Below, piece after piece: positions 28,216 to 37,985 of a stretch of 43,434 bases of DNA. Position 1 is the stretch's first letter. The number at the start of each line of letters is the position of its first letter. A model generated the notes under the pieces. The model saw only the letters and a program-made list of their open reading frames with translations. It did no database searches and was not told the DNA's origin. The stretch comes from Tepidisphaeraceae bacterium (GTDB taxonomy: Bacteria; Planctomycetota; Phycisphaerae; Tepidisphaerales; Tepidisphaeraceae), in the NCBI GenBank assembly GCA_041482675.1, contig JBGPEF010000001.1, positions 1 through 43,434 on the forward strand. The letters are read 5' to 3'. The translations under genes were made by a program, and so were the position numbers.

Positions 28216-29643
28216 GTGGCAAAGCTTTCCTTCCATATCGACGATGTGATCAGCGGCCGCCGCAGGATGACCGACGAGCAGGCGCTGGAGCTTTATCATT
28301 CGGCCTCCATGCACGACCTGGGACAATGGGCGCATGCGCGCTCGCTGGTGATGCATCCGGAGGACTATCGCACCTACGTCATCGACCGCAACATCAACTA
28401 TACCAACATCTGCACGGCCAAATGCACCTTCTGCGCGTTTCGGCGGGATCATGAGGATGAGGATAGCTATACGCTGAGCTATGAGACGATCGGCCAGAAG
28501 ATTCGCGAGCTGGTGGCGATCGGGGGGACGCAGATTCTGATGCAGGGGGGAATGAACGATCGCCTGCCGCTGGAGTGGTATGAGGGGTTACTGAAGTTCA
28601 TCAAGACCGAGTTTCCAAGGGTTCACATCCATGCTTTCTCGCCGCCGGAATTCATTGAGTTCGAACGGTTCTTCAAGGTGGATGTGCGGGAGGTAATTCG
28701 GCGGCTGCGGGCGGCCGGGCTGGACACGATTCCTGGTGGTGGCGGGGAGATTTTCGCCCCACGCGTGCGACGGCGGATTGGGATAGGCAAATGTACGGGG
28801 GATAACTGGATGAGGGTGATGCGGGTGGCGCACGAAGAGGGAATGAACACCTCCGCCACAATGCTGATTGGGCATATCGAGTTTGTTCGGGAGCGGATTG
28901 AGCACATGAGTGCGCTGAGGGATATGCAGGATTATGCCCTTGGGTTAGGGACGAGGGACGAGGGACGAGGGACGAGGGAAGAGGAGATCCGGCGGCGATG
29001 GTCGGGGGTGTTTGAGCAATCGAGGATCGAGGATCGAGGATCGAAGATCGAGAGGGCGGGTTCTTACACGGCGTTTATTCACTGGCCGTTCCAGCGCGAA
29101 AACACTCCTCTCGGTCGGGCCGAGGAATGGGAGCCGGCGATCCATGGCCCGTTTGATGACTCGACCAATGACGACATCCTCCGTGGGCGGGTGGTGCGGA
29201 TGGCGGGGGCGGAGGAGTATTTGAAGATGTTGGCCATTGCCCGGTTGTTCCTGGACAACATCCCATCGCTTCAGAGCAGTTGGGTGACCATGGGGCCGAA
29301 GATTGGGCAGCTTGCCCTGTTTTTCGGGGCGAACGACATGGGGTCGGTGATGATGGAGGAGAATGTCGTCAGCGCGGCCGGGACGACCTATCGGCTCAGC
29401 GAGCGCGAAATTTGCCGGCTGATCCGGGATGGCGGTTGGGTGCCGGCGCAGCGTGATCAGTATTACCGGGTGCTGCGTCGCCAGGACGGCCCAGATTCTC
29501 CAGACCTTCGGCCGCTGGCGGAGCCTCCGGTTCGGGCGGTGAAGAAGATCGATGAGCGGTTTGTAGGGGCCGCGCCGGGGTTGGATGATGGGCGAGACCG
29601 GAGCGTGGGGGTGCAGTTGCCAATTCTCAGTTCTGATCGTTAA
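28216..29643 (+). CDS. Radical SAM enzyme of the futalosine menaquinone pathway (MqnC/MqnE family) with an internal low-complexity insertion and a C-terminal extension
   Basis: VIDRNINYTNICTAKCTFCAFRR is the CxxxCxxC cluster in the MqnC/MqnE/CofH-type context. Also GGTQILMQGGMN, VHIHAFSPPE, LDTIPGGGGEIF, TSATMLIGHIE and TAFIHWPFQRENTPL. I cannot discriminate MqnC from MqnE by eye; the DRNINYTN context leans towards MqnC. GTG start at 28216. Confidence 0.85.
   Translation: MAKLSFHIDDVISGRRRMTDEQALELYHSASMHDLGQWAHARSLVMHPEDYRTYVIDRNINYTNICTAKCTFCAFRRDHEDEDSYTLSYETIGQKIRELVAIGGTQILMQGGMNDRLPLEWYEGLLKFIKTEFPRVHIHAFSPPEFIEFERFFKVDVREVIRRLRAAGLDTIPGGGGEIFAPRVRRRIGIGKCTGDNWMRVMRVAHEEGMNTSATMLIGHIEFVRERIEHMSALRDMQDYALGLGTRDEGRGTREEEIRRRWSGVFEQSRIEDRGSKIERAGSYTAFIHWPFQRENTPLGRAEEWEPAIHGPFDDSTNDDILRGRVVRMAGAEEYLKMLAIARLFLDNIPSLQSSWVTMGPKIGQLALFFGANDMGSVMMEENVVSAAGTTYRLSEREICRLIRDGGWVPAQRDQYYRVLRRQDGPDSPDLRPLAEPPVRAVKKIDERFVGAAPGLDDGRDRSVGVQLPILSSDR
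28948..28979 (+). repeat. Heptanucleotide tandem repeat (GGGACGA) x4.6 inside the mqn radical SAM CDS
   Basis: Perfect units at 28948, 28955, 28962 and 28969, plus a partial unit 28976..28979. Encodes ...GTRDEGRGTRE... Confidence 0.9.
29021..29048 (+). repeat. Heptanucleotide tandem repeat (CGAGGAT) x3 plus one imperfect unit inside the mqn radical SAM CDS
   Basis: Units at 29021, 29028 and 29035 are perfect. The unit at 29042 (CGAAGAT) has one mismatch. Encodes ...SRIEDRGSKIE... Confidence 0.9.
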
Positions 29644-29838
29644 TCATTGCTTTATAATCAGATAGGTCGAAACAGGAACGGCTGAGGCCGTTCATCTGAC
29701 GCTAAGAATCTTTTTACCTTTTAACCTATTTTGGGTCTTCCCCGGCCATGCCGGGTGCGCGGTACCATCTCGGTTTGACGAGGAAGCCGGGCCTGGGTCG
29801 GAGCCGGCTGGAAGGAAGGAAGAATGTGAGGCGCGGCC

Positions 29839-30264
29839 ATGTCGACCATACTAATTGTTGAAGACGACTCGGATACGCGTGAGGTGATGGCGCGCTATCT
29901 GACATTGGCCGGTTACGAGCATGTCTCGGTCAGCAATGGGTGGGAAGCGCTGCTGGCGGTGGATCAGAACAAGATCGATCTGATCCTGTTGGATGTGATG
30001 ATGCCGGGGATGGATGGGGTGACGTTTCTGAATATCCTTCGGAACGCCCAAACCAAGAGAAACACACCGGTTGTAATCGTGACCGCGATGTCCAGGCAGG
30101 AGCTGAGCAGCCGATTCCACGATTTGCCGGTACAGGCAGTCCTGCCCAAGACACAAGAGCTTTTCGATGAGCTGATGCAGACGGTGCATAAGATCCTGGA
30201 AAAACCGGAGCCAGGGGAGGGTCCATCTGAATCGGCGGAATCCGAGGTCATACGCGGGAACTAA
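29839..30264 (+). CDS. Single-domain response regulator (CheY-like)
   Basis: ILIVEDDSDTREV...DLILLDVMMPGMDG...PVVIVTA...VLPKT are the receiver signature positions. Length is 141 aa. Confidence 0.9.
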   Translation: MSTILIVEDDSDTREVMARYLTLAGYEHVSVSNGWEALLAVDQNKIDLILLDVMMPGMDGVTFLNILRNAQTKRNTPVVIVTAMSRQELSSRFHDLPVQAVLPKTQELFDELMQTVHKILEKPEPGEGPSESAESEVIRGN

Positions 30265-30440
30265 ACTCTCGGCAAATTCATGTCGTCCGAGTTGATCGGA
30301 CTGAGATGGATTGCGGTTTGGGGAGCGCGGGTTTGGCGCGGGGGTTCTTTTTGCGCACTCGATTTGGGGACGATGGCTGAATCAGCTTTTATTGTTGGGA
30401 TGAGCGTGGGGGGTTAGCATGACGGCGTCCTATCCGCCGC

Positions 30441-31265
30441 ATGAACTTTCCGGTCGAGTTCAACCTCCTGGGGCATCGCGTGCCAGCGCACGGGGTGATG
30501 GAGCTTCTGGCATATGTGGTGGGGGTGCAGTTTTACTTCTGGCTGAGGAGGCGGGGGAGGCTGGGGGCGGGAGCTGCGCTGCCGGTGGATCAGAATCTTT
30601 GGCTGATCGTGGGATGTGTGATGGGGGCGATGGTGGGATCCAAGGTTTTGGCCTGGGCCGAGTCGCCGTTGGATTATTGGGCAAGGCGGAGTACGCCGCT
30701 GGTGCTGCTGAGTGGCAAGACGATTGTGGGCGGGCTGCTGGGGGGATGGATTGGCGTGGAATTGGTGAAGAAGAGGCTGGGGGTGAGGCAGGCGACGGGG
30801 GATTTGTTTGTGTTTCCGCTGGTGGTGGGAATTTCGATAGGGCGGGTGGGGTGTTTGCTGACCGGATTGGCGGATCACACGCATGGGGTGCATACATCGC
30901 TGCCGTGGGGAGTAAATTTCGGCGATGGGCCGAGACATCCGACACAGCTTTACGAAATTGCGTTTGTGTTGCTGCTGGGGGGCGCGCTGATTTGGAAGAG
31001 CAAGGGGGAGTACTGGAATGGGGAGTTGTTTGTGTGGTTTATGACGGGGTATCTGGGGTTTCGGTTTGTGGTGGAGTTTATAAAACCGAGGCATGTTTAT
31101 TTTGGGGCGTTGAGCGCGATTCAAATGGCCTGCCTGGTTGGTTTGATTGAATGCATGAGGCGATTGGCGCGCGGGCGGGTTCACAGCGCGCACGGGCATT
31201 CCCGGCGCGCCGGGGCTGCCCATGCCACCCATTCCACTCATGCTACTCAAGGGGTGAGCGAATGA
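30441..31265 (+). CDS. Prolipoprotein diacylglyceryl transferase (Lgt) family paralog, non-canonical subfamily
   Basis: Polytopic membrane protein with the Lgt C-terminal signature GRVGCLLTG....HG..TSLPWGVNFGDGPRHPTQLYE. The canonical GNF.NgE and GG..HGG blocks are replaced by GCLLTGLADHTHG and GKTIVGGLLGG. Confidence 0.75.
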   Translation: MNFPVEFNLLGHRVPAHGVMELLAYVVGVQFYFWLRRRGRLGAGAALPVDQNLWLIVGCVMGAMVGSKVLAWAESPLDYWARRSTPLVLLSGKTIVGGLLGGWIGVELVKKRLGVRQATGDLFVFPLVVGISIGRVGCLLTGLADHTHGVHTSLPWGVNFGDGPRHPTQLYEIAFVLLLGGALIWKSKGEYWNGELFVWFMTGYLGFRFVVEFIKPRHVYFGALSAIQMACLVGLIECMRRLARGRVHSAHGHSRRAGAAHATHSTHATQGVSE

Positions 31266-31924
31266 CTGAGACGATGGAGAATATTGAGAGGCCCGATGAA
31301 AGCGCGGGCTGGGAGGCAGCGCGGCGGATCGAGTCGTGGGCGGGGGAAATTCGCGTCAATCGCCTGCGATTGGCGGCGATCATCATTTTTTATGTTCGGC
31401 ACCTGATCGATGTCTACGTCAACCCGTTGAACCGGCAATTCACCGGCAGATATCACCTGCTGGTGACGGTGATCGTGCTGGCGTGGACGGCACAGGTGCT
31501 GTGGCTGCATTGGGCGCTGTCGCAGCGGAGGATGGGGGAGAAGCTCAAATACATCGCTGTGATCTGGGATTTGGTGATGGTGACGATGCTGGGAATCGTG
31601 GCGAAAACGCCGCAGACGCCTTTGATGCTGCTCTATTTCATTGTGATCGCTTCCGCGCCGCTGCGGTTGTCGCTGAGATTGGTCTGGGTGGCGACGCTGG
31701 GGGCGATGGCGGGGTATGCGATCGTTCTGGCGTATTACGCGTGGTGGGTGATTGGATTTGACAAATATTACGCGACGCCGGAATTGCGGATTCCACGCAG
31801 CGTCGAGGCCATCTGGATTTTGGCGATAGGAGTGGCCGGGCTGCTGGCGGGGCAGGTGGTTCGGCAGATGCGGCGGCTGAGCGGCGGGTATCCGGTGGCG
31901 ATGGGACAGCAAGGCAAGGAGTGA
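31262..31924 (+). CDS. Polytopic membrane protein of unknown function (about 6 TM)
   Basis: Start ATG 31262 overlaps the lgt-like stop (ATGA). Hydrophobic segments: LAAIIIFYV, LLVTVIVLAWTAQVLWL, IAVIWDLVMVTMLGIV, LMLLYFIVIASA, VWVATLGAMAGYAIVLAYYAWWVI, AIWILAIGVAGLLAG. The track start at 31151 would overlap lgt by about 110 nt. Confidence 0.65.
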   Translation: MTETMENIERPDESAGWEAARRIESWAGEIRVNRLRLAAIIIFYVRHLIDVYVNPLNRQFTGRYHLLVTVIVLAWTAQVLWLHWALSQRRMGEKLKYIAVIWDLVMVTMLGIVAKTPQTPLMLLYFIVIASAPLRLSLRLVWVATLGAMAGYAIVLAYYAWWVIGFDKYYATPELRIPRSVEAIWILAIGVAGLLAGQVVRQMRRLSGGYPVAMGQQGKE

Positions 31925-31927
31925 GCT

Positions 31928-32635
31928 TTGGCCGACACGCTGGTTTGCCCACATTGTCGTGAGCGGCTCTGGGTGGCCCGGATGCAGATCGCGCTGCTGA
32001 CCTGTCCGCGCTGTTTGCGGGTGATCATCAATCCCAATGCGGCGACGCGGCCGGCGGTTGAGCCGCGGCAGGTGATTCCAGTGGAAGAGGAGGTTCATTT
32101 CGACCTCCGCGATACGGTGGGGGGGCTGACGATTTTGGCGCTGACGCTTTTTCTGGGCGCGGTGGTGGCCGCGAGGTATTCGCAGATGTTTGGCCTTAGC
32201 GCGGTGCTGTTCATCGCTGCGATGATGACCGTGGGCGGCGTGATCTGGGCAGCGCGGCGGCCGAAGGATGATCAGCAGTGGGAGGGCTCCCTGCCGCCGC
32301 CTCCGCTGCGCGGCGGAGTGGTGCTGGAGTATCAGCAGGTTCGGCCCAAGGTATCCGTGCTGGCGTTCATCGGCGGATTTCTGGCGGCCATCGTCATCGG
32401 GATCGTTTGTTTTTATGCCATGGTGGCCACAGGGGATCGCAGCTCGGTGAATACTCGGCGGCTGGTTTTCGCCGGGATGCTGGTGCTGCTCATGGGTATG
32501 GTTTACGCGGCCACGCGGCTGGGAAGAATCCCCGGCTGGGCGGGATTTGGCCGAGGGGTGGCGGTGGGGTTGGCGATGTCGATGATGGCGCTGGGGCCGT
32601 GCGGGGCGTGTTATATGTTGACGTTGTTTGGATAA
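31928..32635 (+). CDS. Zinc-ribbon (CPHC...CPRC) membrane protein of unknown function (about 4 TM)
   Basis: TTG start 3 nt after the previous stop. N-terminus: LVCPHCRERLWVARMQIALLTCPRCLRVI. TM segments: LTILALTLFLGAVVA, AVLFIAAMMTVGGVIW, VLAFIGGFLAAIVIGIVCFYAMV, LVFAGMLVLLMGMVYA. A C-terminal GPCGAC is present. Confidence 0.6.
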   Translation: MADTLVCPHCRERLWVARMQIALLTCPRCLRVIINPNAATRPAVEPRQVIPVEEEVHFDLRDTVGGLTILALTLFLGAVVAARYSQMFGLSAVLFIAAMMTVGGVIWAARRPKDDQQWEGSLPPPPLRGGVVLEYQQVRPKVSVLAFIGGFLAAIVIGIVCFYAMVATGDRSSVNTRRLVFAGMLVLLMGMVYAATRLGRIPGWAGFGRGVAVGLAMSMMALGPCGACYMLTLFG

Positions 32636-32656
32636 GTTTCTTCGGGAGGGCCTGGA

Positions 32657-34093
32657 ATGCGCGAGCGCGATTATCTTTTTTATGAACTGACCAGCAGCCT
32701 CTGCGCGACTTGTCTGCGGAAGGTGGAGGCGAAGGTGGTGATTCAGGGGGAGGATGTGTTCATGCTCAAGCGCTGCCCGGAGCATGGGTTTGCCAAGGTG
32801 CTGATTTCGACGGATGCGGAATATTACAAACTCTCGCGGCAGACGCTCAAGCCGGGGCAGATGCCGCTGAAGTTCAACACGCCGATCAAGTGGGGATGTC
32901 CGTATGACTGCGGATTGTGCCCGGATCACGAGCAGCATTCGTGTCTGACGCTGGTAGAGATCACCGACCAGTGCAATCTCACCTGCCCGATTTGTTATAG
33001 CGAATCGTCGCCGAAGCGATTGACGCACCGCAGCCTCGAGCAGGTCGAGTTCATGCTCGATTGCGTGGTGCGCAATGAGGGCGAGCCGGATGTGGTGCAG
33101 ATTTCCGGCGGCGAGCCGACGATTCATCCCCGGTTCTGGGAGATCATGGATGCAGCGCGGCGGCGGCCGATCAAGCATCTGATGCTGAACACCAATGGCC
33201 TGCGGATCGCGCACGAGGCGGAGTTTGCAAGTCGTCTCAAGGAATACATGCCTGGGTTTGAGGTTTATTTGCAGTTTGATTCGCTGCGGGAGCGGCCGTT
33301 GCGGGAATTGCGCGGAGCGGATCTGCGCGATGTGAGATTGCGGGCGCTGGAGCGGCTCAATGAGCACAATATTTCCACGACGCTGGTGGTGACGTTGAAG
33401 AAGGGGCTCAACGATTCGGAGATTGGGGAGATTATTGATTTTGCATTGAAGCAGAGGTGCGTGCGCGGCGTGACGTTTCAGCCGATTCAGTCGGCCGGGC
33501 GATTGGAGGATTTTGACCCAGCGCGGGATCGGTTGACGCTGGGCGAAGTTCGGCAGCAGATTTTGAAACAGTCGCCGATTTTCAAATCCAGTGATGTGAT
33601 TCCCGTGCCGTGCCATCCGGATTGCCTGGCCATGGCGTATGCGCTGAAGATGGATGGGTGCGTCACACCGCTGACGGGGCTGATCGATCCGCAGGTGCTG
33701 CTGCATGGCGAGGGGAATACGATCGTCTATGAGCGGAATGCGGCCGTCCGCGGGGAGTTGTTCAAATTATTTTCGACCGGGGCAAGCCCGCAATCGGCGG
33801 CGGGGAGTTTGAAGCAGTTGCTCTGCTGTTTGCCGACGGTGACGGGGAGCGGATCGCTGACGTACGACAATATTTTCCGGATCATCATCATGCAGTTCCT
33901 GGATGCGCACAATTTTGACGTGCGGAGCGTGAAGAAGACGTGCGTGCACATCGTCCATTCGGACGGAAGGATCATTCCGTTTGATACGTTCAATATGTTT
34001 TATCGGGATGAGAAGGAGAGGAGGTTGGAGGGGTTGAGGGAGGAGACGATGACGCAGATGCGGGTGAGGGGGAGGGAGATGGTGGGGCAGTGA
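32657..34093 (+). CDS. Radical SAM enzyme with an N-terminal Zn-ribbon, COG1964 / MJ0619 (tetraether lipid synthase Tes, GDGT-MAS)-like architecture
   Basis: GGGAGGG SD upstream. N-terminal Zn-ribbon: LTSSLCATCLRKVEAKVVIQGEDVFMLKRCPEHGF. Additional Cys cluster: WGCPYDCGLCPDHEQHSC. Radical SAM cluster: ITDQCNLTCPICY. SGGEPTIHP; LNTNGLRIA; C-terminal VPCHPDCLAMAY and CVHIVHSDGRIIPFDTFNMFYRD. Confidence 0.8.
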   Translation: MRERDYLFYELTSSLCATCLRKVEAKVVIQGEDVFMLKRCPEHGFAKVLISTDAEYYKLSRQTLKPGQMPLKFNTPIKWGCPYDCGLCPDHEQHSCLTLVEITDQCNLTCPICYSESSPKRLTHRSLEQVEFMLDCVVRNEGEPDVVQISGGEPTIHPRFWEIMDAARRRPIKHLMLNTNGLRIAHEAEFASRLKEYMPGFEVYLQFDSLRERPLRELRGADLRDVRLRALERLNEHNISTTLVVTLKKGLNDSEIGEIIDFALKQRCVRGVTFQPIQSAGRLEDFDPARDRLTLGEVRQQILKQSPIFKSSDVIPVPCHPDCLAMAYALKMDGCVTPLTGLIDPQVLLHGEGNTIVYERNAAVRGELFKLFSTGASPQSAAGSLKQLLCCLPTVTGSGSLTYDNIFRIIIMQFLDAHNFDVRSVKKTCVHIVHSDGRIIPFDTFNMFYRDEKERRLEGLREETMTQMRVRGREMVGQ

Positions 34094-34601
34094 TCTTCTG
34101 CTGCCCGGGCAGGTGGTGAGTCTGGGGTATTACAGGAAAACCGCGTCGAGTGTTGGGATATTCAGGGCCCGATTCACCGGCCGACTCATTTAATGCTTGC
34201 GCGAATGCCTCTACTTCTGGCGTGAGGGCTGCATAAAGCATGAATGCTCGTTCACCAGCGTTTGTAATAACGATGAGCCATGGCACTTTTCGTGTGCGTG
34301 CTGCTCCGAACATCAAATAGAACCCAACCAGAGTGATGGAAAGGGTTAGAAGCGGATTGTAATAAAGGCCCATCAGCGTCAGGCCAATAGGTACGGCAAC
34401 CAGCAGTCCCCCGAGGATGAGTCCGACGATTGGATGTTTGAATGACGGACGAAGCTCAATGCGGATCGAGCGAATGTCGGCCCTTGGAACGCTGCCAACA
34501 ACGTCACGACCTTCCAAAACCACAATCAGCCGCTCGCTATACGCGAGCGCGCCGAGTAGCACGTATCGCTCATGAGGATCGACCGCAGCGGTGAATTTCA
34601 T
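33990..34601 (-). CDS. Small 2-TM membrane protein of unknown function (beta-rich / TM hairpin / beta-rich), atypical composition
   Basis: Start placed at ATG 34601 (MKFTAAVDPHERYVLLGALAYSERLIVVLEGRD...). TM hairpin: HPIVGLILGGLLVAVPIGLTLMGLYYNPLLTLSITLVGFYLMFGAA. The Pro/Ser-rich C-terminal tail is encoded antisense to the last 104 nt of the radical SAM gene. The body is visibly more AT-rich than its neighbours. Confidence 0.55.
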   Translation of the reverse strand: MKFTAAVDPHERYVLLGALAYSERLIVVLEGRDVVGSVPRADIRSIRIELRPSFKHPIVGLILGGLLVAVPIGLTLMGLYYNPLLTLSITLVGFYLMFGAARTRKVPWLIVITNAGERAFMLYAALTPEVEAFAQALNESAGESGPEYPNTRRGFPVIPQTHHLPGQQKITAPPSPSPSPASASSSPPSTPPTSSPSHPDKTY

Positions 34602-34678
34602 CTCGCACCAGGCATCCAATCGCCATTGCGATTTTTCAGGTCCGAATGATATACCTATTTCGTGGAGGCATGAAGGTA

Positions 34679-35614
34679 ATGGCTGACATCCGCATTGGTA
34701 TTTCCGGCTGGCGCTACACCCCGTGGCAGGGAACATTCTATCCCAAAGACCTGGCCCAAAAACGCGAGCTGGAATATGCCAGCCGCAAGCTCAACTCGAT
34801 TGAAATCAACGGCTCGTTTTATTCGCTCCAGAGGCCGAAGAATTATCTGGAGTGGTATGAGCAGACTCCGAAGGATTTTATTTTTGCGCTGAAGGGCAGC
34901 CGGTTCATCACGCACATGAAGCGGCTGAATGATGTGAAGCTGCCGCTGGCGAATTTTCTGGCGTCGGGGGTGCTGGCGCTGCGGGACAAATTGGGGCCGA
35001 TTTTGTGGCAGTTTCCGCCGAATTTTGGATTTGATGAGGAGAAGTTTGCGAGGTTTTTTGAAATGCTGCCGAAGGATCGGGAAGAGGCGGTGAAATTGGG
35101 AAAGCACCACGATGCGCGGGTGAAGGGGAGATCGTGGCTGGAGGTTGATAAGAATCGCAAGTTGCGGCATGCCGTGGAGGTTCGACATGAGAGTTTCAGA
35201 ACACCGCAATTCGTGAAGCTGCTTCGCAAGCACAATTTCGCTCTCGTCTTCGCGGATACGGCCGGCAAATGGCCGTACATGGAGGATGTGACTTCCGATT
35301 ACATCTACGCGCGGCTGCATGGTGACGAGGAGCTCTATGCCAGCGGCTATACCGATGACGCGTTGGATTGGTGGGCGGCGAGACTTTGCAAGTGGAAGAG
35401 TGGCGGAGAGCCGGAGGATCGAAAAACGGTGTTGGCGGCGCGGCCGAAAAAGCGCAAGAGCCGCGATGTGTTCGTCTATTTCGACAATGACGTGAAAGTA
35501 CGGGCGCCCTATGACGCGATGAGGCTGATGGCGCGGATGTCCGGCAAATCGCCGCCGAAGGCGCAGGTGCACAAGGTGGCCGAGGCGGCGCGGACGAGCT
35601 GGCCGAAACTGTAG
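34679..35614 (+). CDS. DUF72 (UPF0759/YecE-like) family protein
   Basis: MADIRIGISGWRYTPWQGTFYPKDL...LEYASRKLNSIEINGSFYSLQRP..Y..W...TP.DFIFALKGSRFITH is the DUF72 signature. GGAGG lies 10 nt upstream of ATG 34679. In-frame alternative starts are at 34646 and 34670. Confidence 0.85.
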   Translation: MADIRIGISGWRYTPWQGTFYPKDLAQKRELEYASRKLNSIEINGSFYSLQRPKNYLEWYEQTPKDFIFALKGSRFITHMKRLNDVKLPLANFLASGVLALRDKLGPILWQFPPNFGFDEEKFARFFEMLPKDREEAVKLGKHHDARVKGRSWLEVDKNRKLRHAVEVRHESFRTPQFVKLLRKHNFALVFADTAGKWPYMEDVTSDYIYARLHGDEELYASGYTDDALDWWAARLCKWKSGGEPEDRKTVLAARPKKRKSRDVFVYFDNDVKVRAPYDAMRLMARMSGKSPPKAQVHKVAEAARTSWPKL

Positions 35615-35652
35615 GTCCGGCTTTGCCGGACGTCCGGCACAGCCGGACCTAC
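35611..35652. terminator. Nested inverted repeat between convergent genes, with both stop codons inside the arms
   Basis: Outer arms GTAGGTCCGGCT (35611..35622) and AGCCGGACCTAC (35641..35652), 12 bp, perfect. Inner perfect palindrome GCCGGACGTCCGGC (35625..35638). The TAG of DUF72 (35612..35614) and the TAG of GH2 (complement of 35649..35651) occupy equivalent arm positions. Confidence 0.7.
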
Positions 35653-37874
35653 TTCTCCTTCAGCAAATCGATCAACCCCACGTCGATATATTGCCCGCCC
35701 GTGGTTTGTTTGCAGTGGATGGCGATCGTGTTAGGCCCGGATCGAAGAGCGGCCTTGCCCTTATCGCTCAAGGGGATGGTGACGTAGTCGCTGGTGAAGC
35801 CGGGAGCGGTGGCGACGAGTTGGCCGTTGATATAGACCTCCGCATCCTCATCGTGATGGATGAGCAGGTGCGGCTCGTTGAAGGCGGTCACGCGCAAATC
35901 GAAAGTTTTGCGAATCCAGATTTCGGGCGTTTTCCATTCCGTCCCAATGACCGCGCCGGGCGTTCCCTCGGTGCCGAAGCCCGCGGCCCCGGTGGTCCAC
36001 CAGGTGTCGTTGAAGTCGGTGCTGGTCCAGTTATCGGCCGGTTTTTCCGTCACATACCGCCAGTCAATCGGCATATCGCGCGCCACGGGGATCAGCGTGA
36101 TCAGGCGCGGCGCGGGAAGCGAAAGCTTCTTATGCGCGGCCATGATCTTCTCCTCGTTGGGCTTGATCATGGCGCGGTCATAGGTCATCAGGCCGTTCAC
36201 TTCCATCTCGACGTCGGTTGTCTGCGTGTAAACGGCGGCGGAGAGGCCCGAGGCGGCCAGGAGGCGCAGGTTTTGGGTCAGGAAAACATAAGCCTCGGTG
36301 AGCGAGTCGCGATCCTGGAAGGTGCGATAGCCCCAGTTGCCTTTTTCCTTCCAGAGATGGCCGGAAATTGGCAGACCGAGCCCGCCATATTCGCCCAGGA
36401 CGGCGGCGCGATTTTCCTCGGGCTTGGGTGCGCCCGGGCCGGGATACAGATGGATGTCATGCACATCGCCGGCCGGAAAATCGTTCCACCCGCTGGCGCA
36501 ATTGGCCAGACGCGTGGGATCGAGTTGTTTGACGAGATTGGTGATGCGTGAGGTCTGGTACTGCCCCCAGCCTTCGTTGAAAGGCACCCACATGACGATG
36601 CAGGGATGGTTGTAATGGGTATCGATCATCGCCCGCAGCTCGCGTTCGTAGTTGTCGGCCGATTCTTTGCTGCGGGTGATTTCTCCCTTGCCGGGAGCGA
36701 CGTGTTTGTCGCCGCTGGGCATGTCCTGCCAGACCAGCAGGCCAAGTTTGTCGCACCAGTAATACCAGCGATCCGGCTCGACCTTCACGTGCTTGCGGGC
36801 CATGTTGAAGCCGAGCTTTTTGGTGATTTCGATGTCGTACTTCAGTGCTTCGTCGGTGGGTGCGGTGTAAAGCCCATCCGGCCAGAAGCCCTGATCCAGC
36901 GGGCCATGTTGGAAGACGAACTGGTTGTTGAGCATGATTCGGGTGATGCCTTGGGCATCCTTGCCGAGGGCGATCTTGCGCATGCCGAAATAGGAAGTGA
37001 CTTCATCCTTGCCAGCGCGGACGCGCAGGGTGTAGAGGTGCGGGGAATCGGGAGACCAGAGCCTGGCATTGTCAATTTTGAGAGTGATCTTGCCCGTGGG
37101 GCCGGTGGCGGTGGCGACTTCCTGATCGCCATCCATGGCGGCCAGTTGGATTTCATTGGTGCCCACGCCGTCAACGATCACGGCAACTTCGCCTTTATCG
37201 ATGTCGGGAGTGATTTTGAGTGAGCGGATGTAATTCTGAGGAACGGCCTCGATCCAGACGGTCTGCCAGATTCCGGTGGTCGGTGTATACCAGATGCCGT
37301 TGGGGCGGGCGTGTTGTTTGCCCATGGGCTGATAGCCATCGGTGGTGGGGTCCCAGACGGAGACGGAGAGGGTGTTCTGGCCTTCGACGAGCTTATCGGT
37401 GATGTCGAAGGAGAACGGGTCATAGCCGCCGGTGTGGGTGCTGACCAGTTTTTTGTTCACGAAGACGGTGGCGTTCCAATCGACAGCGCCAAAGTGCAGG
37501 AGGATGCGCTGGCCCTTCCAGGTTTCGGGGAGGCGGAAAGAGCGCTGGTACCAGAGGCGATTTTGCGCGCCGACCGGTTTCATCACGCCCGAGAGCGCGG
37601 ATTCGATGGGAAAGGGGACGAGGATTTTGCCCTGGTATTTTTCGGGCTGTGTGTTGGTGTCCTTGGGCGCGATCGCGTAGTCCCACAGGCCGTTGAGGTT
37701 GACCCACTCCGGCCGCTCCATCTGCGGCCGCGGGTATTCGCGATGGGCATTGTCAGGCGAGACGTCTTTGGCCCACCTTGTCATCAGGGGGGCGGTTTGA
37801 GGTTGCCACTGCGCGTGAGCAAAACCAGTGGCCAAAACAAGAACGATACTGCTGAAAATGAAGGGGGATTTCAT
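35649..37874 (-). CDS. Glycoside hydrolase family 2 (beta-galactosidase/beta-glucuronidase-like) with a C-terminal beta-sandwich module
   Basis: Start placed at ATG 37874 (MKSPFIFSSIVLVLATGFAHAQ, signal peptide). GH2 sugar-binding domain: WYQRSFRLPETWKGQRILLHFGAVDWNATVFVNKKLVSTHTGGYDPFSFDITD. TIM barrel: GFNMARKHVKVEPDRWYYWCDKLGLLVWQDMP and NHPCIVMWVPFNEGWG. Confidence 0.88.
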   Translation of the reverse strand: MKSPFIFSSIVLVLATGFAHAQWQPQTAPLMTRWAKDVSPDNAHREYPRPQMERPEWVNLNGLWDYAIAPKDTNTQPEKYQGKILVPFPIESALSGVMKPVGAQNRLWYQRSFRLPETWKGQRILLHFGAVDWNATVFVNKKLVSTHTGGYDPFSFDITDKLVEGQNTLSVSVWDPTTDGYQPMGKQHARPNGIWYTPTTGIWQTVWIEAVPQNYIRSLKITPDIDKGEVAVIVDGVGTNEIQLAAMDGDQEVATATGPTGKITLKIDNARLWSPDSPHLYTLRVRAGKDEVTSYFGMRKIALGKDAQGITRIMLNNQFVFQHGPLDQGFWPDGLYTAPTDEALKYDIEITKKLGFNMARKHVKVEPDRWYYWCDKLGLLVWQDMPSGDKHVAPGKGEITRSKESADNYERELRAMIDTHYNHPCIVMWVPFNEGWGQYQTSRITNLVKQLDPTRLANCASGWNDFPAGDVHDIHLYPGPGAPKPEENRAAVLGEYGGLGLPISGHLWKEKGNWGYRTFQDRDSLTEAYVFLTQNLRLLAASGLSAAVYTQTTDVEMEVNGLMTYDRAMIKPNEEKIMAAHKKLSLPAPRLITLIPVARDMPIDWRYVTEKPADNWTSTDFNDTWWTTGAAGFGTEGTPGAVIGTEWKTPEIWIRKTFDLRVTAFNEPHLLIHHDEDAEVYINGQLVATAPGFTSDYVTIPLSDKGKAALRSGPNTIAIHCKQTTGGQYIDVGLIDLLKEK

Positions 37875-37985
37875 GCTGCTTCCTTGTAAATCCCGATCCC
37901 CACCCACCACTGGCATGGCGCGCAAACCCGGAAGATGGTGGGCGATGCCCACCTTTGGCCATATCGACCAAATCCCTATGCGACA

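Follow-up and report, generated by a model that had tools for sequence, protein, structure and literature searches.

The locus and its four genes

We describe here a cluster of four genes in a 43,434-nucleotide (nt) stretch of DNA from a Tepidisphaeraceae bacterium of the phylum Planctomycetota (GenBank assembly GCA_041482675.1, contig JBGPEF010000001.1, positions 1 to 43,434 of the forward strand), which is referred to as the window. The first gene encodes a divergent relative of Lgt, the prolipoprotein diacylglyceryl transferase, and the last encodes a radical S-adenosylmethionine (rSAM) enzyme with the fold of GDGT-MAS (MJ0619), the archaeal tetraether lipid synthase also known as Tes. The Lgt paralog and the rSAM enzyme are shown below to be an obligate pair, encoded as one polypeptide in some lineages, and most of the loci that carry the pair also carry a small membrane protein with a lipobox-like Cys. 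The features of the cluster are as follows.

30441..31265, + strand: gene 1, divergent Lgt-fold membrane enzyme, 274 amino acids (aa)
31262..31924, + strand: gene 2, membrane protein with about six transmembrane segments and no Cys, 220 aa
31928..32635, + strand: gene 3, Zn-ribbon protein with about five transmembrane segments, 235 aa, TTG start
32522..32635, + strand: C-terminal segment of gene 3 with lipobox-like geometry, read directly from the sequence
32636..32656, + strand: spacer of 21 nt between genes 3 and 4 with a Shine-Dalgarno-like GGGAGGG, read from the sequence
32657..34093, + strand: gene 4, rSAM enzyme with the GDGT-MAS/Tes fold, 478 aa, ATG start

The genes are closely packed. 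Genes 1 and 2 share an ATGA overlap at 31262-31265, genes 2 and 3 meet at 31922-31930 as TGA, three nucleotides (gct) and TTG, and gene 3 ends in TAA followed by the 21-nt spacer with GGGAGGG and the ATG of gene 4 at 32657. The NCBI annotation of the same organism (GCA_041492675.1, our locus L003), an independent call, contains the identical four gene models with identical starts. A preliminary description, made from the letters of the window, had reported four coupled genes on one strand together with these junctions and several protein motifs, and all of these were confirmed on the sequence.

A conserved enzyme pair, fused in some lineages

A genome scan with the rSAM enzyme, limited to one genome per species, recovered 80 loci in which the rSAM protein is 60-76% identical to that of the window. 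They are distributed over Bacteroidota (29 loci), Acidobacteriota (18), Bacillota (15), Planctomycetota (5), Cyanobacteriota including Obscuribacterales (5) and Pseudomonadota (2), with one locus each in Gemmatimonadota, Myxococcota, Actinomycetota and Eisenbacteria and two in unclassified bins. The planctomycete setting in which the system had been pictured was therefore too narrow, with rSAM proteins of this identity occurring in about ten phyla.

In 74 loci the upstream DNA is long enough to be informative, and in 69 of them the Lgt paralog precedes the rSAM gene on the same strand, scoring 200-330 bits against a hidden Markov model (HMM) of the paralog; in 43 of these 69 the two genes overlap or are at most 30 nt apart. 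Among the other five loci the paralog is downstream in two and absent from the locus in three. The latter, which lack it despite 6 kb of upstream sequence, are from an Isosphaeraceae metagenome-assembled genome (MAG; L008), Fischerella sp. PCC 9431 (L038) and an Acidobacteriaceae MAG (L040); their Lgt paralog may be encoded elsewhere in the genome. The Fischerella locus keeps, downstream of its rSAM gene, a small open reading frame (ORF) of the Cys-tail kind described below. The reverse scan, from the Lgt paralog into metagenome contigs, found the rSAM gene downstream in 56 of 80 loci, and in 56 of the 57 with at least 1.5 kb of downstream sequence. Of the 24 metagenome loci without it, 23 have less than 1.5 kb downstream, and the remaining one (L148) ends after homologs of genes 2 and 3. 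When the neighbouring ORFs were clustered all against all, no other family exceeded 10 loci.

In some lineages the two enzymes are a single protein. P0243 is one chain of 733 aa with the domain order LGT, Zn_ribbon_HMPTM, Radical_SAM, and, used as a query, it retrieved at least 56 separate clusters of such fusions (656-825 aa) in NCBI, JGI, ENA and Logan sequences, with clusters labelled Tepidisphaerales and Verrucomicrobiota. By its established topology Lgt has its C-terminus in the cytoplasm, and the paralog shows a positive-inside pattern in accord with this; a fusion made through that C-terminus thus places the rSAM enzyme in the cytoplasm. Adjacency in 69 of 74 loci and the fusions together put the link between the two enzymes far beyond chance, which bears out the functional coupling that had been proposed from the window. 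The conserved unit is this pair and not the four-gene block. All four gene types are co-conserved, in variable order, within part of Planctomycetota, so that of the earlier suggestion of a four-gene system the pairing of the enzymes stands and the block as a unit of conservation does not. The universal core consists of the enzyme pair and a Cys-bearing small protein, and the four-gene version is lineage-specific.

The radical SAM enzyme

Gene 4 encodes a protein predicted to be soluble and cytoplasmic, with the Pfam domains Zn_ribbon_HMPTM and Radical_SAM and the motifs CxxC...CPEHG, GCPYDCGLC, CNLTCPICY, CHPDC and RIIPF. By sequence it matches GDGT-MAS (7TOL) with 229 bits (E 8e-67) over residues 11-320 and 399-470, at about 28-30% identity overall. 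Its structural model has a mean predicted local distance difference test score (pLDDT) of 72.8 and aligns in Foldseek with 7TOM/7TOL over about 490 columns (TM-score 0.77-0.78, E 5e-36); the next-best structures are the SPASM peptide maturases SkfB and SuiB, with TM-scores of 0.36-0.38. Residues 320-399 are unaligned to GDGT-MAS and were modelled with low confidence. The MJ0619/Tes architecture that had been recognised from motifs is therefore borne out by the fold, and all four domains of GDGT-MAS are present (rubredoxin, N-terminal cluster, radical SAM core and C-terminal cluster).

The Cys/His sets at the positions of the metal sites of these domains are invariant in 81 orthologs. They comprise the rubredoxin-type site C16-X2-C19-X20-C40-X2-H43, which is the CX2CX20CX2H of GDGT-MAS, the N-terminal auxiliary cluster C81/C85/C88 (with H91/H94), which matches the three-Cys and His cluster built on C73/C77/C80 in GDGT-MAS, the CX3CX2C radical SAM cluster C106/C110/C113, likewise shared, and a C-terminal set in which all four of C319, C390, C391 and C429 are conserved. 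Overall, 127 of the 478 positions are at least 97% identical across the orthologs. The position of the labile Met439 of GDGT-MAS corresponds to M412, in a poorly aligned region of low confidence, and is occupied by Met in 55, Val in 23 and Leu in 3 of the 81 sequences. Gene 4 also differs from Tes in its C-terminal Cys set, in that its hosts are bacteria with ester lipids and in that it has an obligate Lgt-fold partner, none having been described for Tes in the literature examined.

Curated family models place the enzyme outside both named families. Against NCBIfam Tes it scores 274.7 bits (cut-off 450), aligned to model positions 2-319 of 486, and the relatives in its clade score 176-267 bits. 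The best curated model is TrsS (NF045646), which belongs to the bacterial members of the same superfamily; here the alignment is full-length and includes the C-terminal domain, with 324 bits against a cut-off of 490. A superfamily search of 1.84 billion representative proteins returned 8043 members, and in a neighbour-joining distance tree of the full-length top matches among representative sequences the window protein groups with P0241-P0243, with true TrsS (P0354, 503 bits) in another clade. By curated cut-offs gene 4 is neither Tes nor TrsS. The missed cut-offs and the separate clade mean that 'Tes-like' describes the fold and cofactors of gene 4 and not its function, and that a membrane-spanning lipid product is neither shown nor excluded. 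Profile searches and a tree had been suggested in the preliminary description as the way to place the enzyme; the expected Zn_ribbon_HMPTM, Radical_SAM and LGT domains were all found, and the rSAM protein itself fell outside the Tes cut-off and in a clade apart from TrsS.

In the neighbouring TrsS-side clades, proteins (P0381, P0382, P0345) have as fusion partners a class I methyltransferase, a MobA-like NTP transferase with HD, or DUF5714, which hints at quite different, non-lipid substrates within the Zn_ribbon_HMPTM rSAM superfamily, and MJ0619 was itself formerly assigned to methanopterin biosynthesis. On this basis the pair could carry out small-molecule or cofactor chemistry unrelated to lipids, with the Lgt-like protein as a transporter-like partner. 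We consider this very unlikely, as those fusions belong to a different clade, one that has no Lgt fusions, the partner of gene 4 has a lipid-binding fold with a conserved lipid pocket, and no metabolic genes are co-conserved with the pair.

The Lgt paralog

Gene 1 matches the Pfam LGT domain (PF01790) over its full length (87 bits, cut-off 24.9). The sole PDB match of its AlphaFold model (pLDDT 85.9) is E. coli Lgt (5AZB; E 5e-7, TM-score 0.54), whose seven-transmembrane fold (5AZB/5AZC) it shares, with seven predicted transmembrane helices and a cytoplasmic C-terminus. It nevertheless stays far below the cut-offs of all NCBIfam Lgt equivalogs (32-54 bits, where 119-636 are required), with 31.9 bits on TIGR00544 (cut-off 118.9) and 53.9 bits on NF000778 (cut-off 334), and its orthologs from other phyla reach 28.7-93 bits on these two models. 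The name that NCBI gives to its relatives is merely 'prolipoprotein diacylglyceryl transferase family protein'.

Residues were mapped by aligning 22 paralogs with E. coli Lgt, and conservation was measured over 67 paralogs from about ten phyla. The numbering of the E. coli sequence was checked against the PDB alignment and the motif numbers of Mao et al., 2016. Gene 1 contains the motifs GKTIVGGLLGG, GRVGCLLTGLADHTHG and RHPTQLYE, the last of which corresponds to R195...E202 of E. coli Lgt. The residues of the lipid pocket correspond as follows.

E. coli G142-R143-x-G145: window G134-R135-x-G137
E. coli E202: window E172
E. coli Y235: window Y204
E. coli R239: window R208
E. coli E243: window E212 (E/D, always acidic in the paralogs)
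E. coli R246: window K215

The second pocket for phosphatidylglycerol (PG) or diacylglycerol, site II, is kept by the paralog, with R135, E172, Y204, R208 and E/D212 conserved at 97-100%. In E. coli Lgt the site-II residues R143, E202, Y235 and R239 are mutation-intolerant, the active site lies in the outer half of the membrane, and every tested substitution of H103, Y26, R143 or E151 is inactive (Mao et al., 2016). Of these last four, R143 alone has its counterpart in the paralogs. The position of H103 (in HGGL) is V96 in the window and V, M, L or I in 67 of 67 paralogs, and Y26 is replaced by H17; N146 is replaced by C138, which is 100% conserved. From the E. coli signature G142-RLGNFINGELW-G154 gene 1 keeps G142, R143 and G145. 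In the paralogs the E151...G154 segment and the periplasmic head domain are replaced by LxD/ExTxG...LPWxVxFGDG, and in gene 1 the head domain is deleted and counterparts of W256 and Y259 are absent. Across the 67 paralogs R135, C138, T147, R165, H166 and Y171 are 100% conserved, and H17, E21, K93, E107, K110, D121, D162, E172, R208 and K215 are conserved in more than 95%.

Because its scores are far below the equivalog cut-offs and residues essential in E. coli are replaced, gene 1 is, as far as its sequence tells, a non-housekeeping Lgt paralog, which agrees with the earlier view of it. About 20 invariant polar residues argue for an enzyme with altered donor selection and acceptor recognition and not a degenerate scaffold. 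That gene 1 could instead be an ordinary housekeeping lgt which by chance lies next to an unrelated radical SAM gene has in its favour the full-length Pfam LGT domain. This explanation deserves hardly any credence given the equivalog scores, the NCBI label of 'family protein', the replacement of His103, Tyr26, Asn146, Glu151 and the head domain, and an association with the rSAM gene that extends over about ten phyla and at least 56 fusion clusters. Such a partner, sometimes fused, also distinguishes the gene 1 family from E. coli Lgt.

Small Cys-tail proteins beside the pair

In most loci a small ORF on the same strand (about 50-120 aa) begins at or just after the stop of the rSAM gene, and overlaps of 4 nt are frequent there. 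Its place is between the enzyme genes in Tepidisphaerales and Acidobacteriaceae, and upstream in two Paenibacillus loci (L020, 4835-5092; L030, 4907-5170, in both cases upstream of the Lgt paralog). The encoded proteins have a common layout, with a basic segment, 14-17 uncharged hydrophobic residues, a Cys and a tail of 3-14 residues. Examples of the Cys-tail are IISLGICGALM in Flavobacteriaceae, LLIGLSTCG in Chitinophaga, FLLNAACFG in Bacillales, ALLNGACF in cyanobacteria and LIFFGxC in Tepidisphaerales, and in the Acidobacteriaceae version VSLGLCG stands at the end of an N-terminal helix. Around the Cys (n=61) position -3 is L, F or N, -2 is G, S or A, -1 is I, A, T, S or L, and +1 is G, S or F. 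The positive-inside rule puts the Cys in the outer half of the membrane, as are the Lgt active site and the lipobox Cys.

Under a strict rule 54 of 80 loci have at least one Cys-tail small ORF next to the pair, compared with 17 of 3194 (0.5%) background small ORFs, which were taken from other parts of the same loci. A profile with 57 Cys-tail proteins as seeds adds L012, L016, L017, L053, L084 and L086 (E 1e-8 to 0.0035), and overall the layout is found beside the pair in at least 59 of the 80 genome loci. In L086 an apparent fusion of the rSAM enzyme to the small protein was rejected as an artefact of a masked run of N. Where the enzyme genes of a metagenome locus are separated by 200 nt or more, a Cys-tail ORF lies in the gap in 31 of 34 cases, with up to three in tandem. 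Tandem copies number two in Flavobacteriaceae and three in L013, L033 and L110, and in the fusion-gene locus L088 the same kind of small ORF follows the fusion.

Like lipobox substrates of E. coli Lgt, these proteins present a Cys after a basic segment and a hydrophobic helix. They differ in that the Cys is usually 3-14 residues from the C-terminus and in that position -1 is often I, L or T, and they do not satisfy the classical criteria for a lipoprotein signal peptide. N-terminal versions of the Cys motif are confined to L005, L006 and the Acidobacteriaceae. In the two former loci, which are of the Tepidisphaerales type, the intervening gene (L005, 4475-4978; L006, 4356-4976) does not encode a small Cys-tail protein but one of 167-206 aa, in which a lipoprotein signal of canonical appearance (LLWLMAGC, IGIMVGC) precedes a soluble domain. 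No Pfam or NCBIfam family matches the small proteins above its cut-off. Their commonest weak match is NCBIfam NF058595 ('lipo-invert', a putative C-terminal anchoring domain), found for 5 of 36 small proteins at 11-14 bits against a cut-off of 37 (E 0.0076-0.33), including those of L063, L069, L072 and L055 and not window gene 3. This may reflect a related curated concept or a coincidence of hydrophobic composition.

One further observation concerns the distribution of these proteins. The two small proteins downstream in L042, a MAG labelled Actinomycetota, carry LLNGGCWLL, a motif nearly identical to that of their counterparts in cyanobacteria (L028, L029 and L038), which suggests recent transfer or a mis-binned contig.

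Genes 2 and 3 of the window

Neither of the two genes between the enzymes matches a Pfam or NCBIfam family above cut-off. The gene 2 protein has about six hydrophobic segments by hydropathy and no Cys, and only a sub-threshold similarity to MASE12 / 6TM_PilS. Its homologs were found in L110 (E 2e-61), L148 (4e-55), L013 (1e-27) and L011 (1e-9) only, always within the same module, and gene 2 is thus a lineage-restricted accessory of a few Planctomycetota-type loci, outside the universal core.

Gene 3 had been described as free of recognisable motifs. By position and pattern it fits the class of small membrane proteins with a lipobox-like Cys. Two N-terminal CxxC pairs (a Zn-ribbon) are followed by about five hydrophobic segments by hydropathy, and the C-terminal part has a basic loop (RLGRIPGWAGFGRG), 14 uncharged hydrophobic residues, Cys225 (nt 32600-32602) and a tail of 10 residues, with the end of the protein reading GRG-VAVGLAMSMMALGP-C-GACYMLTLFG. 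A second candidate is Cys161, in RPKVSV-LAFIGGFLAAIVIGIV-C. Homologs of the whole protein are found in L148 (E 1.5e-8), where it is truncated by the contig end, and in L110 (E 3.7e-4), where it ends in a typical Cys-tail. From these sequence features its membership in the Cys-tail class is plausible, and gene 3 is a candidate substrate or partner of the enzyme pair. The same combination of Zn-ribbon and Cys-tail recurs elsewhere. The planctomycete locus L013 has the order rSAM gene, gene 2 homolog, three tandem Zn-ribbon and transmembrane Cys-tail proteins, and Lgt paralog, and in an unrelated phylum the small protein of the Paenibacillus locus L020 begins with a Cys-rich Zn-ribbon-like segment, CMNHPEREAAHQCARCGKPLCEEC, giving it the architecture of window gene 3 and of the L013 triplet.

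Tandem, hypervariable small ORFs with one invariant Cys resemble the precursor genes of peptides made on the ribosome and modified after translation (RiPPs), and the cytoplasmic Zn-ribbons of window gene 3, the L013 triplet and the L020 ORF could dock on the rSAM enzyme. The pair might accordingly act in a RiPP-like maturation, with the rSAM enzyme modifying the small protein by a Cys thioether or a C-C crosslink and the paralog docking or recognising it, or lipidating it afterwards; SkfB and SuiB, as the next-best structural matches, would be in keeping with such a role. We judge this to be unlikely. The sole full-length structural relative of gene 4 is a lipid enzyme, and neither a SPASM nor a RiPP-recognition domain was detected in it with Pfam or by structure comparison. 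In addition, the invariant Cys is predicted to lie in the outer membrane half, away from the cytoplasmic rSAM enzyme, and no protease or exporter gene is conserved nearby.

Proposed mechanism

The occurrence of a Cys-bearing class of small proteins shifts the likely target of the pair from bulk lipids to a dedicated protein substrate. We tentatively favour, as a reading that falls somewhat short of probable, a dedicated lipidation or lipid-crosslinking machine that acts on small membrane proteins. In such a machine the Lgt paralog would sit in the cytoplasmic membrane with its lipid-binding or catalytic pocket facing the outer leaflet, and the rSAM enzyme, whose gene is in most phyla translationally coupled to that of the paralog, would be held at its cytoplasmic face. 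The small proteins would present their Cys at the outer end of the helix that follows the basic cytoplasmic segment, in lipobox geometry. The paralog would recognise the lipobox-like helix of its cognate small protein together with a glycerophospholipid in the site-II pocket, and would transfer a diacylglyceryl unit to the Cys, or hold it there. Using 5'-deoxyadenosyl radicals and its auxiliary cluster, the rSAM enzyme would crosslink inert alkyl-tail carbons of that lipid, through a C-C bond, the linkage made by Tes, or perhaps through a C-S bond. The outcome would be a small membrane protein whose lipid anchor had been remodelled by radical chemistry. We infer the glycerolipid substrate, the role of the small protein as acceptor, the type of bond and the order of the steps.

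Several points weigh against this proposal, and the main one is topological. The two catalytic centres are on opposite sides of the membrane, the pocket of the Lgt paralog being in the outer leaflet and the rSAM enzyme in the cytoplasm, which makes shared access to one lipid or Cys difficult. The residues corresponding to His103, Tyr26 and Glu151 are replaced, so that transferase activity of the paralog is, on its sequence, not assured. GDGT-MAS, the closest characterised rSAM homolog, acts on free membrane lipids and not on proteins, and the small protein could be a structural subunit instead of a substrate. The small proteins are short and hydrophobic, the survey of small ORFs relied in part on a rule that requires a Cys, and a minority of loci, including the fusion locus L087, have no obvious small ORF. 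Gene 3 of the window is scored by neither of the two Cys-tail HMMs (one with 57 seeds and one of the Tepidisphaerales type with 11), so that its place in the class rests on position, architecture, pattern and homology to L148 and L110. The difficulty of topology would be reconciled if, as a matter of speculation, the rSAM enzyme made a membrane-spanning or macrocyclic lipid that then served as the donor for the paralog.

A different account of the same enzymes dispenses with the protein substrate. The rSAM enzyme would be a synthase of the tetraether or diabolic-acid type that couples the tails of bulk lipids, the paralog would anchor it and feed it phospholipid, and the small protein would be an accessory subunit. 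The complete GDGT-MAS architecture and ligand motifs of the rSAM enzyme are in line with this, as is the phospholipid pocket kept by the Lgt paralog. GDGT-MAS binds phospholipids, bacterial ones included, and acts on the termini of alkyl tails. Bacterial Tes homologs, which have been reported from groups including Phycisphaerae, are standing candidates for the synthesis of brGDGTs (branched glycerol dialkyl glycerol tetraethers) and iso-diabolic acid. Many of the host taxa are rich in iso-branched fatty acids, the termini of which are like phytanyl termini. Against it stand the score of the rSAM enzyme under the Tes cut-off (275 against 450 bits) and its separate clade, and the fact that a mere anchor needs neither about 20 invariant polar residues nor an invariant Cys; the lipobox-like Cys and the tandem copies of the small proteins would also be left unexplained. 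In the literature, Tes homologs under stringent criteria occur in only 3 of 14 acidobacteria that produce iso-diabolic acid. We also know of no report of membrane-spanning lipids in the cultured aerobic hosts Paenibacillus, Neobacillus, Chitinophaga, Flavobacteriaceae and heterocystous cyanobacteria. Coupling of bulk lipid tails is accordingly possible, and in our view unlikely.

A membrane lipid or lipoprotein tail-modification system had been the interpretation offered for the window. An undescribed lipid-modification system remains the favoured interpretation, and the part that leaned on Tes is weakened, the rSAM enzyme being outside that family by cut-off and in a separate clade. Within the proposal of a machine dedicated to small membrane proteins, a bolder and rather doubtful form is that of a widespread lipidation pathway, in which the holoenzyme of Lgt paralog and rSAM enzyme would put a radical-crosslinked anchor on a C-terminal, lipobox-like Cys to give 'inverted lipoproteins'. 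Such an anchor could be macrocyclic or membrane-spanning, linking the cytoplasmic radical chemistry to transfer in the outer leaflet.

Neighbouring genes and other features of the window

A CheY-like gene ends 176 nt upstream of gene 1, and further upstream a second radical SAM gene (28216-29643, + strand) scores barely above the equivalog cut-off of MqnC, the cyclic dehypoxanthinyl futalosine synthase (436.8 against 428.1 bits). The CheY-like regulator had been pointed out in the preliminary description. Both genes were considered as members of the system and rejected, because only the two enzyme families are conserved across loci; every other locus has different flanking genes, and a CheY-like gene is not a conserved neighbour of the module. 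In the MqnC-type protein the model match is split by an inserted, charged low-complexity segment of about 75 residues (GTRDEGRGTREEEIRRRWSG, IEDRGSKIERAGS), located between the radical SAM core and the CofH_C domain.

On the other side, an ORF of 248 aa with hydrophobic segments (33990-34736, - strand) shares 104 nt, in antisense, with the 3' end of the rSAM gene. It is without a family match and is uncalled in the NCBI annotation of the same organism, and it may not be a real gene. A DUF72 protein (34646-35614, + strand) and a glycoside hydrolase family 2 protein (35649-37952, - strand) are ordinary neighbours, also present in L003 from the same organism and not in the other loci. A consensus promoter and terminator scan of 29600-34800 found no more sites than in shuffles, and Rfam at gathering thresholds gave no match in the window.

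The + strand of the window has an unusually strong bias of G over C along 1-43434, most marked in 1-34000. Over the whole window the GC skew amounts to 0.216; in 2-kb bins it is 0.2-0.39 and drops to about 0.04 at the 3' end. ORFs listed on the - strand show the bias as well, and in related loci from other genomes the skew is -0.04 to 0.10.

Comparison with known systems and implications

The only experimentally supported tail-coupling enzyme of bacteria is Mss of Thermotoga and Thermoanaerobacter, which is likewise a radical SAM enzyme and is proposed to link acyl-tail carbons in the lipids of bacteria. It resembles gene 4 in this proposed chemistry, with the comparison drawn from its description in the literature, and differs in having no reported Lgt partner; Mss is only remotely related to Tes and comes from anaerobes. 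For the small proteins, the nearest parallels are the C-terminal sorting or anchoring systems exosortase with PEP-CTERM and myxosortase with MYXO-CTERM, and the 'lipo-invert' family NF058595, where a dedicated membrane enzyme stands beside short targets that combine a motif, a hydrophobic helix and a cluster of basic residues. In the proteins described here the order is reversed (basic segment, helix, Cys), and the enzyme families are unrelated. A search for literature on 'lipo-invert' found nothing.

Our literature searches found no link between Lgt and a radical SAM enzyme, no fusion of the two, no mention of the small proteins and no experimentally tested bacterial Tes homolog, and none of the three parts is covered by a model in NCBIfam release 20. 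The system of Lgt paralog, rSAM enzyme and small protein is therefore undescribed in the literature and NCBIfam searched, as had been supposed for the window.

Lgt is regarded as a single-function, essential enzyme and as an antibiotic target. To our knowledge, no enzyme other than Tes/GDGT-MAS has been shown, by structure and in vitro, to link two unactivated sp3 carbons of lipid tails. Paralogs of these two enzymes that form an obligate pair, fused in some cases and present in about ten phyla, would represent a new type of membrane machine. Its hosts include the easily cultured Paenibacillus, Chitinophaga, Flavobacteriaceae and cyanobacteria, and a candidate substrate is at hand in the small Cys-tail proteins.

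The finding also bears on how bacterial Tes homologs, which have been proposed as brGDGT or iso-diabolic-acid synthases, are read. We infer that the Lgt-linked clade would count as a Tes homolog by published BLAST criteria (about 30% identity to MJ0619, E 8e-67). If it were set apart, the range of bacteria inferred to produce brGDGTs could change, and these lipids serve as palaeoclimate proxies. If the protein-lipidation reading is true, many 'bacterial Tes homologs' would belong to a protein-directed system and would not be tetraether synthases.

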